DNA of 38,014 nt from a virus. The stretch lies in the UHGV virus genome UHGV-0042156; one strand, written 5' to 3'. Under the pieces are notes generated by a model that saw nothing but the letters and a program-made list of their open reading frames with translations, did not search any database and was not told the origin of the DNA. Both the position numbers and the translations under genes were made by a program. Every line of letters starts with the position of its first letter. Position 1 is the stretch's first letter. Below, piece after piece: positions 4,236 to 10,520 of this stretch.

Positions 4236-4532
4236 TCAGTCATTACTGATAGCGCCATAGCGTGAGCGGTAATTACGCAGGCGCGGGTCGATATATTCAG
4301 GGAAGTGGGTATATGTGGCTTTGCGGAATGGTCGGATTGATGTCTGGTAAATTCGCTCGCGTTCTTCTTTCTCTGCAAGCCATATACAGTGGCGAAATTC
4401 CTTTTCCTCTTTCGTTTCCTGCGGTAGAGACATTATTCGATCGTAGTTTTTCCTGAATTTATCCAGCACCTCCGATACGGAATTGCCGGAACAGCGGCGC
4501 GCGTCATCCGCACCATACAGAGGCACTGGCAT
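4236..4532 (-). CDS. Hypothetical early protein
   Basis: 98-aa ORF. Confidence 0.6.
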
Positions 4533-4939: not shown

Positions 4940-5544
4940 TAAGCAGCCGCTCCTTCTAATTCGTCTCGTCTGATGTTGTAAACGTCCTGCGCTTTGTGCT
5001 GCTCAGGTGTGCCTTCGAGCATCTTCCACGCTTTGGCGAACGCCTGTTTAAGCTCTTCCACGGTGTTTTTCTGCATTGCTGCGTCAGTGAATGCTTTTAG
5101 AACCTGTTCAGGTGTAGGTGATGGTTTTGATTGCTTTGCTGCTGCGTTCTGCTGATGTTTATGCTCGTCTGTATCTGCATCTTTCGCATCATCAATGCCG
5201 AACAAACCATTGAGGCAATACTTGCGCGCATAAGAACTTGTAGCTCCAGTAACTTGTGCAGAATCCATTCCTTTCTTGCTTTCTTCCTCTCGTGCAAGAG
5301 CGGTTGCCGTATGACTGTTTTCGCCATCGGTAATAGTTGCCGTGGCTTTCACGTAATACCGATCACCAATCAACACAACTTCATCGCTGATTGATAAAAA
5401 CAGGCCATTCAGTAACGGCTTAACGCCTTCAAGAATGTCTTCGCAGCTTCTGTATTTATATTTGCCGAATGAGTTGTACTGATTCTTTGGCGCGTTCAGA
5501 TTCTCCTGAATAGCTGCCAGTCTTGCGTAAAATTCTTTGCTCAT
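4939..5544 (-). CDS. erf: Erf single-strand annealing recombinase (P22 Erf-like)
   Basis: Starts MSKEFYARLAAIQENLNAPKNQYNSFGKYKYRSCEDILEGVKPLL, colinear with P22 Erf as recalled; ORF-track start 5574 is an N-terminal extension. Confidence 0.85.
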   Translation of the reverse strand: MSKEFYARLAAIQENLNAPKNQYNSFGKYKYRSCEDILEGVKPLLNGLFLSISDEVVLIGDRYYVKATATITDGENSHTATALAREEESKKGMDSAQVTGATSSYARKYCLNGLFGIDDAKDADTDEHKHQQNAAAKQSKPSPTPEQVLKAFTDAAMQKNTVEELKQAFAKAWKMLEGTPEQHKAQDVYNIRRDELEGAAA

Positions 5545-5633
5545 ATGATTGTTCTCAGAATGGACATGGCCCAAGGAAATAACGCTGATTTAATACTTCA
5601 GTCTTTGCCGCATTCAAAAATACGCGAACACCT

Positions 5634-5804
5634 TCACGATCTCCCTTCTGGCGATACATTAACGCCTGCTGCGTGTACATGCGTCTCTGTAACTTGCTCT
5701 CCTTCACTGTGGTTGCAAGTGACATGAATATCTCCTTCGTTACCGATTAATTCTTTCATCTGACGAATGAATTCTTCGTCTGACCAGTTATCTGTAAAAC
5801 TCAT
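5634..5804 (-). CDS. Small hypothetical protein downstream of kil
   Basis: Start ATG overlaps kil stop (ATGA coupling). Confidence 0.4.
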   Translation of the reverse strand: MSFTDNWSDEEFIRQMKELIGNEGDIHVTCNHSEGEQVTETHVHAAGVNVSPEGRS

Positions 5805-5953
5805 TTCCTGCGATACCACGGAAGGTTGATAGCTGATTTCATCGCTTTATTTGCTTCAAGCCACATTTTGGAATCACCAATAAATCTGGCTATTACTGCT
5901 TTGTTCTGTGCAGCACGAAGCATCTGGTGATTGATGGCTATTTCATTGCGCAT
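5801..5953 (-). CDS. kil: Kil-like host cell-division inhibitor
   Basis: Manual translation MRNEIAINHQMLRAAQNKAVIARFIGDSKMWLEANKAMKSAINLPWYRRK; the IARFIGDSKMW segment resembles lambda Kil (IATFIGDEKMF) as recalled; not in ORF track. Confidence 0.55.
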   Translation of the reverse strand: MRNEIAINHQMLRAAQNKAVIARFIGDSKMWLEANKAMKSAINLPWYRRK

Positions 5954-6072
5954 AACGCCTCCAGTTGTTTCTTTGCTGCTCTGATTAATTGTTTAACTCG
6001 GCGTGATAATTCAGATTCGTGCGGGTAGAAAGCGGACATGACGCCGCTACCCGCGAGCTGAAAGTGCATCAT
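5938..6072 (-). CDS. cIII: cIII-like FtsH inhibitor
   Basis: Manual translation MMHFQLAGSGVMSAFYPHESELSRRVKQLIRAAKKQLEALCAMK; pattern matches lambda CIII (MQYAIAGWPVAGCPSESLLERITRKLR) as recalled; AAGGA 8 nt upstream; overlaps kil start. Confidence 0.5.
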   Translation of the reverse strand: MMHFQLAGSGVMSAFYPHESELSRRVKQLIRAAKKQLEALCAMK

Positions 6073-6145
6073 GGGGAAGTTCCTTAAGTTGAATGTTGTT
6101 GTCATAGCGAAAGAGACTCGAATGAATCTCTGTTGATATGCTGGT

Positions 6146-6170
6146 ATGAAAAAGCCGCACTCAGGCGGCT
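6146..6170 (-). terminator. Rho-independent terminator after orphan gene
   Basis: Minus-strand hairpin AGCCGCCTGAGTGCGGCT followed by TTTTTC; overlaps the stop codon. Confidence 0.6.
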
Positions 6171-7143
6171 ATTTGATGTCTTGCGTGTAGCCTGTACCGC
6201 CACAGCATGAGCATTGCTCTATTGGCGCGTGAATGGTATCCATAAGCGTCGTAAGGAAGTTATCAATCATTTCCTTTAGCTCCCATTCGTTATTGGCTTT
6301 GAACCCTTTAATCGCCGTATAACCTTTGTAATTTTCTTGGTCATGTGTCATTTGGAAAATTTCAATTTCCTTCACCGTGTCAGTCTTAAAGTGCAACTTT
6401 GCTCTTTGCTTCTTGGTTCTGGCAAAAATATCCTGATATGAATATGTGTGAGGCTTAAGGAGCGGTATTATTTTTTTAACGGTAAAGCAAAATGCGTAAT
6501 CACTTGTTATTCTAGCCAGTTTGTTGTCGATGTTATCTTTTACGTGCTGGCGTACAATGTCATACATTTCTTTTGATGAAATTTCACAAGGGCTGTTAGC
6601 CCGCAAAGGCTCAGGAATTATGATGCAGTCAACAAGAGAGTGTTTTACGTTTATGTTTTTTACAACGTACCTCTCCTCCCGGAACTCAACCTGCCTAATT
6701 GCAGAGTAATTAAATTCTGGTGCGTCACGAAAATTTTCAACCTCACATACTAATGTGAATTCAACGTCAACTGGAGAGGTGTAATCAGGTGCAGTATCGT
6801 ATTTGTATTCATAAAGAGAGCCTCTGATATCCTCGTCCACTGCGTCACGCTCATTGTAACTAAGTGTCAAAGGGTATTTTTTACTCTCAAGTTCAGCATC
6901 TTTAAGCTCGTAGCGAACATTAATTCTTTCACCAGAGATAATTCTCTCAACCTTTTCAGGGTAATGTTCAATTTCAAACCAGTTTTTGTGAAAGCTGGCT
7001 TTGGGTTTAACTCCGTCAAATAGGAGATCAGCAATTTTAGATTGATGGTACTGGTAGTGATAACCGTCCTTTGCTGTGCAATCAGTGATAAAACATTTAC
7101 CAGCGTCGGTTTTAATAATGCTTATTTGCAATGCGTTACTCAT
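6169..7143 (-). CDS. AT-rich orphan protein of unknown function (324 aa), candidate accessory/defence gene
   Basis: Long ORF; preferred start MSNALQ at 7143 with GGAGGAG SD (ORF-track start 7239 lacks a usable SD); visibly lower GC than flanks; C-terminal CSCCGGTGY; no motif I recognise. Confidence 0.75.
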   Translation of the reverse strand: MSNALQISIIKTDAGKCFITDCTAKDGYHYQYHQSKIADLLFDGVKPKASFHKNWFEIEHYPEKVERIISGERINVRYELKDAELESKKYPLTLSYNERDAVDEDIRGSLYEYKYDTAPDYTSPVDVEFTLVCEVENFRDAPEFNYSAIRQVEFREERYVVKNINVKHSLVDCIIIPEPLRANSPCEISSKEMYDIVRQHVKDNIDNKLARITSDYAFCFTVKKIIPLLKPHTYSYQDIFARTKKQRAKLHFKTDTVKEIEIFQMTHDQENYKGYTAIKGFKANNEWELKEMIDNFLTTLMDTIHAPIEQCSCCGGTGYTQDIK

Positions 7144-7154
7144 ATCTCCTCCAG

Positions 7155-7182
7155 GCAAAAAGAATGCCCTCACATCGGAGGG
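7155..7182 (-). terminator. Terminator-like hairpin upstream of orphan gene
   Basis: Minus-strand hairpin CCCTCCGATGTGAGGG followed by CATTCTTTTTGCC. Confidence 0.5.
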
Positions 7183-7278
7183 CAAAGAAGATTTCCAATA
7201 ATCAGAACAAGTCGGCTCCTGTTTAGTTACGAGCGACATTGCTCCGTGTATTCACTCGTTGGAATGAATACACAGTGC

Positions 7279-7491
7279 TTATTCGCGAGCTTTGAGCATG
7301 GCATCAGCAATAAAGTAGGCATCATCTGCTAATTCTTTGTATTGTGGTGAATTCTGTCCACCGCCAAAGGAATGTCCGTCCCATCTGCGCACTATTGCTG
7401 CCATAGCCTTAGCAGCGAAGTAATCACGTAATGTCGCATCACTTGCCATTTCTGGGCGTTTGATATCTGCTTCATAAAACTCGCACATCAT
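7279..7491 (-). CDS. Hypothetical early protein
   Basis: 70-aa ORF, coupled (ATGA) to upstream gene. Confidence 0.6.
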   Translation of the reverse strand: MMCEFYEADIKRPEMASDATLRDYFAAKAMAAIVRRWDGHSFGGGQNSPQYKELADDAYFIADAMLKARE

Positions 7492-7781
7492 TCACCTCCC
7501 AGAGCCTTGCTGATTGCTGCAAGACCTTTATTAACAGCTCCATACCATTCTGGATATGTTGTCGTTGTTCTATTTTTGGATTGCTTAAGTAATAACTGAA
7601 GTGCTTCGAGAAGGTCAGGAGCTGCTGCTATCAGTAGCGCATCCTCCCTTTCATTTCTTGTTGCTGCTTCAATGTATGTGTCACCAATCGTCACACCATG
7701 GAACGTAGTCATCATCTCGTTGACGTTTCTAACCGTGTACTTCCATTTACCAGGCGTACCCTTAAACTCTTTCATATCCAC
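7488..7781 (-). CDS. Hypothetical early protein
   Basis: 97-aa ORF. Confidence 0.6.
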   Translation of the reverse strand: MDMKEFKGTPGKWKYTVRNVNEMMTTFHGVTIGDTYIEAATRNEREDALLIAAAPDLLEALQLLLKQSKNRTTTTYPEWYGAVNKGLAAISKALGGE

Positions 7782-7806
7782 CTCTGTTGTTTATGCCAAA
7801 GCAAAT

Positions 7807-8049
7807 TTAACCATCAACAAACTCTTCTGGTAATTTATCAACCAGTTGATGACTTATTATCAGCCATTTGCCATCCTTCGTTTCGTATGCATATTTCTGG
7901 TCTTTTATCATCATGTGTTCAGCTACTGCCTTAACTGCCTGTTCGGTTACATCTTCTTTCTTTCCCACCCACATTCCTTTTTCAGTGTTTAATGTTCCTT
8001 GAAAAATACGACCGCTTAATGGGCTTGCGCCCATAGTTTTTACTCTCAT
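7807..8049 (-). CDS. Hypothetical early protein
   Basis: 80-aa ORF. Confidence 0.6.
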   Translation of the reverse strand: MRVKTMGASPLSGRIFQGTLNTEKGMWVGKKEDVTEQAVKAVAEHMMIKDQKYAYETKDGKWLIISHQLVDKLPEEFVDG

Positions 8050-8113
8050 GTATCAGCTCTCAAATAATTGGTTTGCTGCCAAAACAATGAACCATCCGGA
8101 AATTCCAGATAGT

Positions 8114-8341
8114 TCATAATTCACTCTTCAATACTTCCAACTTACTAATCGCCGATAGATATCCGCGCTGATAGGGCATCATCATTCCTTCGAGCTTGCC
8201 ACTTCTTAACTCCTCCCTGAGCAATTGTATTGCTTGATCAATAACCTCTGCCTTAGCGTCCTTTATGGCTTGCTTGCGGGGCTTTGCTTTCTGCTTTGGC
8301 AGATTTCTCAAGCATGATGGAATGTATGTCTGATTCATCAC
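8114..8341 (-). CDS. Hypothetical early protein
   Basis: 75-aa ORF immediately downstream of N. Confidence 0.55.
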   Translation of the reverse strand: MMNQTYIPSCLRNLPKQKAKPRKQAIKDAKAEVIDQAIQLLREELRSGKLEGMMMPYQRGYLSAISKLEVLKSEL

Positions 8342-8352
8342 TTACCTCGCTG

Positions 8353-8613
8353 TCAGTTGTTTTGATTTCCGGAGCCTGCCGCGTAAATGGCTACGTTTGG
8401 CAGGCAAATACTTCCACTGCATTCTTCTTCCTTCTTGCAGCGAAGGCTTCCGAGTGATGCTGCTTTGTCTGCTCTGACGCAACCAGAGAGCTTTAGCGCA
8501 ATTTTTCGCGCCAGTCGCTGTTCTTGCATTGCCTGCTCACGTTGAGCCTGTCTGCGTGCTCTGCGGCGATTTCTGGCGTTATCGTCAGCCAGATATGTAA
8601 TGACTACTGTCAT
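8353..8613 (-). CDS. N: N-type transcription antiterminator (P22 gp24-like)
   Basis: 86-aa ORF with N-terminal arginine-rich motif (NARNRRRARRQAQRE); MTVVITY start and LPNVAIYAAG resemble P22 gp24; first gene downstream of nutL. Confidence 0.7.
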   Translation of the reverse strand: MTVVITYLADDNARNRRRARRQAQREQAMQEQRLARKIALKLSGCVRADKAASLGSLRCKKEEECSGSICLPNVAIYAAGSGNQNN

Positions 8614-8720
8614 GTTGACCTCCGATGATTGACTTTGGCGGTGACGCGCCGGGTGCTTATCTTCCGGTTGCCGTCGTGCAGCTGCACTTCACGTCACCCC
8701 AAAGCCAACTACTCTTTGGT

Positions 8721-8762
8721 TCCCGCATTTCGGCGGGACAATCCCATCAATGTTAAAGAGCC
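8721..8762 (-). promoter_or_regulatory. nutL (boxA GGCTCTTTAACA, boxB hairpin TCCCGC-CGAAAT-GCGGGA)
   Basis: On the minus-strand transcript, boxA-like element then a 6-bp-stem hairpin identical to the nutR boxB at 10554..10571. Confidence 0.55.
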
Positions 8763-8810
8763 TGCCAATCTGTTCCGTTTGGCTACCAGCTTCCTGCTGA
8801 TGGCTTAAAG

Positions 8811-8893
8811 ATAACTTAGGTTATAGGTGTGGTCAATAACCTAATTTATATTTTGTGGTAAATAAGTTATAAGTGATGGATAACAAAGGTATT
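8811..8893. promoter_or_regulatory. OL operator cluster / pL region
   Basis: Three 14-bp sites ATAAC-N4-GTTAT: ATAACTTAGGTTAT (8811), ATAACCTAATTTAT (8836), ATAACAAAGGTATT (8880); same consensus as OR. Confidence 0.5.
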
Positions 8894-9027
8894 TTATTTT
8901 TGTAAATGTTGCTGATTGATTGGTGTTTGAGGGCTTGCGTGCGGGGTGAAGGTGTTACCTTTGGCTTGATGCTTGTCTATGATGAGGATGGTTGATTGGG
9001 TGGTGAACGGCAGGGAAAGAAAAACCC

Positions 9028-9117
9028 NNNNNNNNNNNNNNNNNNNNNNNNNNNNNNNNNNNNNNNNNNNNNNNNNNNNNNNNNNNNNNNNNNNNNNNNN
9101 NNNNNNNNNNNNNNNNN
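9028..9117. other. Run of 90 N (assembly gap or masked sequence)
   Basis: Literal n characters; flanked on both sides by ccc. Confidence 1.
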
Positions 9118-9142
9118 CCCGGCGCTGAGGCCGGGTGTTTTT
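9118..9142. terminator. Terminator hairpin (lambda tImm-like) abutting the N-run
   Basis: CCCGGC-GCTGAG-GCCGGG then TGTTTTT on plus strand; on minus strand the same hairpin follows the stop of the 9141..9437 gene, with its T-tract (aaagaaaaa at 9017..9025) on the other side of the gap. Confidence 0.5.
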
Positions 9143-9437
9143 AGTCCTTTCTATTGCTTAGCATTTCGTCGATTTCTAAGTCAATACGATATTGATCTAT
9201 TGCTTTTCTCTCGTTTGGGGTTGGTATTTTATACTGTTCAATTAGATCTGTTGTGTATTTTATTTCATCTAATGTGATTTTTATATCAGAGAGAATCTCT
9301 TTTATATCAATTAGATGCTCTTCTTCTTTTGCGCGATTAGAGCTATGTTCAATCATTTGAGATAGCTTTTTGCTAATGCTTAGCAAAACAAAAAGAATGA
9401 TGACCAAAACAACAACAAAAACTATCAGAAATTCCAT
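9141..9437 (-). CDS. Small single-pass membrane protein co-transcribed with cI (candidate exclusion/abortive-infection protein)
   Basis: 98-aa ORF, N-terminal hydrophobic helix (EFLIVFVVVLVIILFVLLSI) then charged coiled-coil; GGAGGG SD 3 nt before ATG; very AT-rich; occupies the rexAB slot. Confidence 0.7.
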   Translation of the reverse strand: MEFLIVFVVVLVIILFVLLSISKKLSQMIEHSSNRAKEEEHLIDIKEILSDIKITLDEIKYTTDLIEQYKIPTPNERKAIDQYRIDLEIDEMLSNRKD

Positions 9438-9477
9438 TATCCCTCCGCACTTCCGTAAGTCTTCTTCTGATTATCGG

Positions 9478-10185
9478 TTACCAACTATGAGACGACCAGA
9501 ATACTCTGCCAATAATCCTTACGGTTTCATGAAATTCATCTCTATCCATTACTTCATCCGGGTACTCTTCGCGATTTATTGATCTGATTATCACCGATGT
9601 AGGGGTGGCGATTAATGTTTTTACTCGTAACAAATCAGACTGGCAAATAGCGTAGGTTTTACCATCTCTGATTGTGGTATCTTGCGTGTTAACACCAACA
9701 ACATCGCCATCGTGAAGCGTTGGTTCCATGCTTTGCCCTACAACCCTAACTAGCTTGGCTGATCTTTCAGATACTCCCATCTTTTTCAGATAGTGCTTTC
9801 TGAAAACCAAAGAGAACTCCGATGATTCCTCTAGCTCGCAGCTACCGCTTCCAGCTGAAAGCGAAACGTTAAGAAGAGGCAACGCAACAAACTCGTCATC
9901 GTTTCTTTTAATGTCTTCCCATACCACAGCTTTTAAAGATGACTCACGGACATTGGATGGTTCTTCATGTGCACCATCCCTCATTTCACCAATACCAGAA
10001 CTAAGCCATTCAGGGCGCACTTTTAAAGCATTGGCTAATTCAACCATCTTGCGAGATCCGTTTGTTTTACCGGACGACATCTTCTGTATGGCTGGCTGAG
10101 ATATTCCAACCATGTCAGCAAGCTGTGATTGTGATACCCCAGCTGAGCTCATGGCTGCATTTAGTCTTTCTGCGAATGTTTTCAT
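9478..10185 (-). CDS. cI: CI-type repressor (HTH plus S24 LexA-like autopeptidase domain)
   Basis: 235-aa ORF; N-terminal HTH (SQSQLADMVGISQPAIQKM); C-terminal Ser/Lys dyad context (VGQSMEPTL ... RVK); divergent from cro across an operator region. Confidence 0.9.
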   Translation of the reverse strand: MKTFAERLNAAMSSAGVSQSQLADMVGISQPAIQKMSSGKTNGSRKMVELANALKVRPEWLSSGIGEMRDGAHEEPSNVRESSLKAVVWEDIKRNDDEFVALPLLNVSLSAGSGSCELEESSEFSLVFRKHYLKKMGVSERSAKLVRVVGQSMEPTLHDGDVVGVNTQDTTIRDGKTYAICQSDLLRVKTLIATPTSVIIRSINREEYPDEVMDRDEFHETVRIIGRVFWSSHSW

Positions 10186-10196
10186 ACCACAAATCT

Positions 10197-10272
10197 ATAA
10201 CTACGGTTATCCAAAGTAAAATAACAAAGGTTATTGCTATTTTTTATAACTTGAGTTATCTTTGGTTATAAT
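10197..10272. promoter_or_regulatory. OR operator cluster with pR -10
   Basis: Three ATAAC-N4-GTTAT sites at 10197, 10221, 10246 (24-25 bp spacing); TATAAT at 10267..10272 upstream of cro. Confidence 0.55.
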
Positions 10273-10295
10273 TAATGACCACAAGAGGTATGCTC

Positions 10296-10520
10296 ATGAA
10301 TTTAGTAATTCAACGAGCCTTGAAAATTGTCGGTAGCCAAAAGCGCCTTGCCGACAAGTGTGGTGTAACGCAGCCAGCAGTACACAAATGGCTGAAAGGC
10401 GGATTGGTCTCTCCAGAGAAAGTTACCGCCATCGTTAACGCCACTGGAGGGCAGATCAAGGCTTACGAAATTCGCCCCGATTTGCCACACCTGTTTCCAA
10501 AACCGAATCAGGCAGCATAA
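10296..10520 (+). CDS. cro: Cro-like HTH regulator
   Basis: 74-aa ORF from MNLVIQRALKIVGSQKRLADKCGVTQPAVHKW; AGAGG 7 nt upstream; ORF-track start 10275 would lie upstream of the predicted transcript start. Confidence 0.75.
   Translation: MNLVIQRALKIVGSQKRLADKCGVTQPAVHKWLKGGLVSPEKVTAIVNATGGQIKAYEIRPDLPHLFPKPNQAA

Follow-up and report, generated by a model that had tools for sequence, protein, structure and literature searches.

Probable identity of a low-GC gene in the pL operon of a lambdoid Escherichia coli prophage as gad1, a Gabija counter-defence gene

The gene gad1 was discovered in phage phi3T by Yirmiya et al. (bioRxiv 10.1101/2023.05.01.538930; Nature 2024), who found 94 Gad1 homologues and tested five of them. 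Four of the tested homologues, that of E. coli included, showed no toxicity, and all four "efficiently inhibited Gabija defense", whereas phi3T Gad1 was toxic in combination with Gabija (bioRxiv 10.1101/2023.05.01.538930). The E. coli homologue appears in Supplementary Table 8 of that preprint as IMG 648535034, "Escherichia coli MS 115-1", 324 aa, "Experimentally verified: yes". When this exact protein was co-expressed with the Gabija system of Bacillus cereus VD045, protection against phage was abolished; the assay was a heterologous one, combining B. cereus Gabija, a B. subtilis host and phage SPbeta (bioRxiv 10.1101/2023.05.01.538930). A second inhibitor, Gad2 of SPbetaL7, likewise acts on Gabija and is likewise encoded in a swappable anti-Gabija locus, but it is a nucleotidyltransferase-like protein, predicted to be an enzyme, with no sequence similarity to Gad1, which implies a different mechanism.

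The structure of GajAB in complex with phi3T Gad1 was solved by Antine et al., who found eight Gad1 molecules arranged around a 4:4 assembly of GajA and GajB (PMC10781630). The C-terminal "shoulder" domains form one tetramer on each face, secured by hydrogen bonds and by disulfides among C282, C284 and C285, and the N-terminal "arm" and "fist" connect partners across the faces, with Y103 at the fist-fist contact. Y190 and F192 pack on the dimerisation helix of GajA, which is also touched by a basic loop of Gad1, and the substitution F192R abolishes both binding and function. Both halves of the protein are required, binding needs GajA and GajB together, and the length of the arm varies among homologues (PMC10781630). 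According to a 2026 review, the mechanism by which Gad1 binding inactivates Gabija is not fully settled. As for the target, GajA is an OLD-family nuclease (PMC10822852), and recent work summarised in PMC12904381 indicates that Gabija targets DNA free of RecBCD activity and that both OLD and Gabija are licensed by RecBCD inhibition.

Here we analysed a 38,014-nt stretch of viral DNA (UHGV-0042156; hereafter the window) and, within it, a 324-codon open reading frame (ORF) on the minus strand at 6169..7143. An earlier note, made from the letters of the sequence, had presented this ORF as an orphan with an undescribed accessory or defence function. We conclude, with a probability of about 0.95, that it is gad1, a phage counter-defence gene that would be expressed early from pL with the help of N-mediated antitermination and whose product would cage GajAB. 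The only Pfam match of the protein is to PF25705, "Gabija anti-defence 1" (E 6.5e-68, 229.9 bits against a cut-off of 27), and it extends over nearly the whole length of both partners (residues 6-321 against profile positions 2-292 of 293). A phmmer search of the PDB gave 8U7I chain I, "Gabija Anti-Defense 1", as the sole real match (E 1.2e-43, residues 14-319 against 8-290 of 295). In a tblastn search of phage genomes, the matches included the genes annotated "Gad1" in phi3T and SPbetaL, at 30% identity over 98% of the length, together with genes of a Clostridioides phage (44%), a Vibrio phage and Shewanella phage 1/4.

The protein is moreover identical to one that has already been tested. 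All 324 of its 324 residues are the same as those of IMG 648535034 of E. coli MS 115-1, with no differences, and the DNA is identical as well across the 399 nt compared; the segment 5900..7500 of the window is 100% identical to the MS 115-1 chromosome. Because of this 324/324 identity, the sequence is the very one tested and not a mere relative of a known protein, and its inhibition of Gabija has been demonstrated by others, in a heterologous host only. The Gad1 of this prophage is thus already known rather than new, and the gene can be dropped as a candidate: the protein has a name, the structure of a homologue has been solved and the exact sequence has been tested. The searches detected no homology to structural or replication proteins, the kind that the earlier note had set against its own reading, but they did turn up clear homology to a characterised protein of another kind.

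The ORF itself was read correctly from the start: it opens with an ATG at 7143, ends with a TAG at 6169 and encodes 324 aa plus the stop, as supported by the ORF reading and by the Pfam, PDB and IMG matches. An alternative start at the upstream ATG 7239 would carry the reading across a hairpin and lacks a Shine-Dalgarno sequence, and the RefSeq gene call is also for the 324-aa form. The Shine-Dalgarno sequence GGAGGAG, read from the sequence at 7146..7152 (minus strand), is kept in two other copies of the gene, that of Enterobacter and that of an MGV E. coli sequence. It had been described as lying 4 nt from the ATG, a spacing that is right for the GGAGG core alone and becomes 2 nt for the full motif. 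The low GC content that had been seen by eye was also borne out by computation, the ORF having a value of 0.392 against 0.474 for the window and 0.42-0.51 for the flanking pL genes, so that composition is not uniform here; just 0.7% of 975-nt windows have a GC content as low.

We then compared the protein with phi3T Gad1 (295 aa, 8U7I), to which it is 33% identical, in a four-sequence alignment that also included the Shewanella and Enterobacter proteins. The likeness to phi3T Gad1 covers the full length, fist, arm and shoulder regions alike, and extends to the SDY-x-FC motif that contacts GajA, the triad of cysteines, the tyrosine of the fist and the basic loop. Y216 and F218 correspond to phi3T Y190 and F192 and lie inside an invariant TSDY-x-FC block, while C311, C313 and C314 fall on C282, C284 and C285 column for column. 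Y111 is the counterpart of Y103, in a L110-Y111 pair that is invariant in the four sequences, and the basic loop of phi3T, MYKRRKPKLEKR, aligns with RTKKQRAKLHFK in the window protein. All of these functional positions are conserved in the alignment. The C-terminal cluster CSCCGGTGY (residues 311-319), which had been noticed without being placed, is present in the translation and, as the conserved Gad1 cysteine triad, is functionally relevant; by the same comparison it is the hallmark of the family.

On the basis of homology to the phi3T and Shewanella proteins, eight Gad1 molecules would bind the assembled GajA4-GajB4 complex. Four shoulder domains would interlock on each GajA face, secured by the cysteine triad, and the arm and fist of each molecule would reach round to meet partners of the opposite face. 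The resulting octameric cage would then block DNA recognition and cleavage by Gabija. This architecture is predicted for the window protein from a solved homologue with one third of its residues in common; a single-sequence AlphaFold2 model of the protein (mean pLDDT 32, pTM 0.20) was too poor for a fold comparison.

A reading in which the protein belongs to the Gad1 family but has a native E. coli target other than Gabija, or a broader specificity, was considered in the light of these data. The target could be an OLD nuclease, for example the P2 Old protein that excludes lambdoid phages. Such a role would be in keeping with the placing of GajA among the OLD-family nucleases (PMC10822852), with the licensing of both systems by RecBCD inhibition in an operon that encodes the anti-RecBCD protein Abc2, and with the use of heterologous Gabija only in the published assay. 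However, inhibition of a Gabija system has been shown for the identical protein, its GajA-contact residues are conserved, and Gad1 binding requires GajA together with GajB, whereas a single-protein OLD has no GajB. We therefore regard a non-Gabija target as very unlikely and retain the identification of the gene as an inhibitor of Gabija.

In E. coli MS 115-1, gad1 is part of a P22-like lambdoid prophage next to ybhC. As the earlier note had placed it, it is found between cIII/kil and N, and Pfam matches to the neighbours confirm this position. It is directly promoter-proximal to cIII (5938..6105, minus strand; PF08134, E 4e-30), which follows it on the pL transcript, and kil (PF06301). On its other side, four small ORFs separate it from an N-like antiterminator gene (8342..8613, minus strand; PF25694, E 9.8e-11). 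The same operon encodes the anti-RecBCD protein Abc2 (4236..4532, minus strand; PF11043, E 1.7e-60), which RefSeq also calls "phage anti-RecBCD protein".

Terminator-like hairpins lie on both sides of gad1, as had been proposed, and each is supported by a terminator scan, by folding and by conservation. The upstream one (7157..7184, minus strand) has a G+C-rich stem of 7 bp (7184..7165) and, at 7164..7157, the T-tail TTCTTTTT. The downstream one (6147..6170, minus strand) has a 6-bp stem, with the stem at 6170..6153, which shares bases with the TAG stop of gad1 and is followed by the tail TTTTTC. The scan found 12 sites in 5000..10500, both hairpins among them, against 5.2 +/- 2.0 in shuffled sequences. 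Folding energies were modest, at -12.3 kcal/mol (z -1.9) for the upstream and -10.4 kcal/mol (z -2.3) for the downstream hairpin, and the reality of the two structures rests more on their recurrence in lambda and other lambdoid phages than on these energies.

The upstream hairpin is near-identical in lambda, H-19B, mEp234, the E. coli prophage FJ_Ec_21 and the prophage SC407, whose slot is empty, and it is annotated as a rho-independent terminator in the mEp234 record. In the Enterobacter prophage, a hairpin with a different stem sequence but an unchanged T-tail occupies this position, which speaks for the importance of the structure itself. The downstream hairpin aligns with those that follow ea10 in lambda, gp17 in H-19B and ea10 in FJ_Ec_21; the Enterobacter prophage likewise has it 3' of gad1, but the empty slot of SC407 lacks it. 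Since the upstream hairpin is present even in the empty slot, it is a terminator of the phage backbone, and the downstream hairpin, being missing there, bounds the cargo.

Beyond the upstream hairpin, the homology to lambda continues. Together with some 110 nt on its far side, as far as about 7285, the hairpin is near-identical to the lambda DNA between ral and ea10, and the non-coding backbone segment at 7185..7285 (minus strand), which matches this lambda DNA, is invariant across five lambdoid sequences, as seen in a flank alignment of lambda, H-19B, mEp234 and the two E. coli prophages FJ_Ec_21 and SC407. The resemblance to the hairpins of lambda ea10, which the earlier note had suggested, is therefore one of homology in both hairpins and in this adjoining DNA. 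By this alignment, gad1 occupies exactly the slot of lambda ea10, with the same hairpin on either flank. What lies between the two hairpins differs from phage to phage: Ea10 (DUF2528, 122 aa) in lambda and FJ_Ec_21, the P22-type gp17 (PF17420) in H-19B, a 322-aa protein of the mEp234_033 family in mEp234, of unknown function and distinct from Gad1, nothing in SC407, and gad1 in the window. Lambda Ea10 and the gp17 of P22 and H-19B (103 aa) share the pL slot and hairpins with gad1, but they are unrelated to Gad1 in sequence and differ from it in size. Ea10 and gp17 from other phages match their own Pfam families (DUF2528/PF10800 and PF17420), and in the Pfam search the window protein matched neither of these.

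A survey of the slot in related phages was among the checks that the earlier note had called for, and its outcome supports the idea of an exchangeable cassette, an accessory gene of lower GC content standing where other phages have different cargo or none. The cassette boundaries delineate a counter-defence gene swapped into the ea10 position between conserved hairpins. The picture of an autonomous, insulated unit did not hold, the upstream hairpin belonging to the backbone and persisting in the empty slot, and the space for a promoter being lacking. The upstream T-tail ends just 4 nt before the Shine-Dalgarno sequence, too close for gad1 to have its own promoter in between, and a promoter scan gave nothing above chance. 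Without its own promoter, gad1 would rely on transcription that continues past the upstream terminator.

This anatomy suggests how the gene would be expressed. Transcription from pL, once antiterminated by N, would read through the hairpins, and Gad1 would be made early after infection or induction, a timing that would suit an inhibitor needed before Gabija acts. The presence of an anti-RecBCD gene and an anti-Gabija gene in one operon fits the licensing of Gabija by RecBCD inhibition. Because Gabija acts where RecBCD activity is lacking, we infer that a phage that disables RecBCD would particularly need Gad1.

The MS 115-1 locus differs from that of phi3T in its surroundings, gad1 lying here in a lambdoid pL operon of a phage with a Gram-negative host, unlike that of phi3T, where the gene belongs to the SPbeta anti-Gabija locus. 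It resembles that of Enterobacter roggenkampii, whose verified Gad1 is of equal length (324 aa) and 78% identical, and lies in the same slot with the same downstream hairpin; the two loci differ in the stem sequence of the upstream hairpin and in the upstream neighbours. The Enterobacter gene is also in the early operon, in the order N...gad1-cIII-kil. More distant copies likewise lie in early operons, one of them in a Photorhabdus prophage and another in an AT-rich phage, where it adjoins recT.

Within E. coli, gad1 is rare, being found in 3 of 5426 complete genomes, and its flanks match in more than 2000 E. coli genomes. Two further E. coli genomes and the 40-kb genome of a gut virus have near-identical copies. 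In IMG/VR there are 14 gad1 loci, including MS 115-1 and Enterobacter contigs and the 40-kb E. coli gut virus. A megablast search of phage genomes left gad1 itself unmatched and recovered the conserved upstream flank only, in 325 phage records. The tblastn search identified 19 phage records with Gad1 relatives, none of them lambdoid, and the cultured lambdoid phages in the collection were without gad1.

The alternative that survives best concerns the present state of the prophage. Relative to the near-identical phage L018, the N gene has lost 1 nt close to its 3' end, and PGAP labels it "frameshifted" and a pseudogene, so that read-through expression in this prophage may be impaired. Together with the rarity of gad1, this could mean that the gene, though intact, is silent, carried along in a prophage undergoing decay without any further use to the phage. 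However, the deletion alters just the last ~10 codons of N, the rest of the MS 115-1 prophage looks complete from the integrase to the capsid genes, gad1 retains a full ORF with an active product, and near-identical copies occur in the two other E. coli genomes and the gut virus genome. We consider a silent passenger improbable, and this alternative bears on whether gad1 is expressed at present, not on its identity. Our preferred reading is still that of a gene that would be expressed early from pL and serve the phage.

A defence gene was also considered and dropped, as no PADLOC-DB defence-protein model matched the window protein at E <= 1 and NCBIfam gave nothing beyond a meaningless 12-bit match; the function is one of counter-defence rather than the defence proposed earlier. 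The related proposal of the earlier note, that the lysogen expresses the gene for defence or superinfection exclusion, might draw on the gp17 found in this slot elsewhere (Pfam name "superinfection exclusion gene product 17"), on the low GC content and on the terminators on either flank, but it has next to no chance of being correct given the missing PADLOC match, the lack of space for its own promoter, the position in a repressor-controlled early lytic operon, and the positive identification as an anti-defence protein with published experimental evidence.

With gad1 identified as a counter-defence gene, the other occupants of the ea10 slot become reasonable anti-defence candidates, and they are the sole lead left by this analysis. 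One could imagine, as a tentative idea that we hold to be doubtful, that the slot is a dedicated counter-defence site, that Ea10/DUF2528, gp17 and the mEp234_033 family are so far uncharacterised inhibitors of further immune systems of hosts or prophages, and that gad1 is kept since Abc2 otherwise licenses attack by Gabija.

Public annotation lags behind these findings. The product of gad1 is labelled hypothetical protein WP_000063561.1 in RefSeq, and the PHROGs family that the window protein strongly matches, phrog_20113, is annotated "unknown function". Because of this lag, similar "orphans" merit a check against current Pfam and lists of anti-defence genes.

The window protein is 29 residues longer than phi3T Gad1, chiefly through an arm insertion at residues ~139-156, and its arm region as a whole is about 29 residues longer than that of the solved protein.

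Besides the anti-Gabija gene gad1, the pL operon of the window encodes Abc2, the P22 anti-RecBCD protein 2 (4236..4532, minus strand). Recent work summarised in PMC12904381 reported that RecBCD inhibition licenses Gabija. Because of this, and because both genes lie in one operon, Abc2 and gad1 may be functionally linked. In phage mEp234, the slot that gad1 takes in the window is occupied by mEp234_033 (L005 1038..2006, minus strand), whose product, a 322-aa protein of unknown function, is about equal in size to Gad1 but unrelated to it. A Pfam search with this protein returned no match, and in PHROGs it matched phrog_1376; we regard it as a candidate for another counter-defence cargo. A near-identical Gad1 is found in the E. 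coli gut virus MGV-GENOME-0294891 (also L018) and is listed in the supplementary table of 10.1101/2023.05.01.538930. The motif reads CSCCCGTG in this protein versus CSCCGGTG in the window, which adds a fourth cysteine, and three further substitutions are present.

Between gad1 and the N-like antiterminator gene, four small minus-strand ORFs of 70, 97, 80, and 75 aa (7279..8341) were each assigned to a PHROG family without known function, the 80-aa product being a DUF7446 protein. Directly 3′ of the 75-aa ORF, which comes after N, lies a strong minus-strand hairpin of 14 bp with a T-tail (8087..8117; −20.3 kcal/mol, z −5.9). Its counterpart is kept in the gad1-carrying Enterobacter prophage (L008 3519..3543). 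In the pL operon, this hairpin is probably the first terminator. The N-like gene itself (8342..8613, minus strand) lacks 1 nt close to the 3′ end, at about 8372/8373, when compared with the near-identical gut phage L018. The last ~10 codons are thereby replaced, and the gene is labelled “frameshifted” by PGAP. In this prophage, pL antitermination may be impaired by the deletion.

In lambda, rexAB is located between the pL/N region and the repressor. At the corresponding place in the window, with the pL/N region on one side and the cI-like repressor on the other, is a 98-aa ORF with a hydrophobic N-terminal segment (9141..9437, minus strand), which shares the strand of the repressor. This ORF is within the lowest-GC stretch of the window (0.28–0.35) and matches phrog_18389, a family labelled “unknown function”. 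As a lysogen-expressed exclusion gene, it is a better candidate than gad1.

Finally, positions 9028..9117 of the window are a run of 90 N, an insertion when set against the complete chromosome of MS 115-1, in which the flanks of the run abut with a 3-nt overlap (CCC). The run has the appearance of a gap or mask in the assembly and not of missing biology. A plus-strand terminator-like hairpin, CCCGGCGCTGAGGCCGGG (9118..9135), has the run at its foot, and beyond the run the window coordinates exceed those of the RefSeq record by 93 nt.
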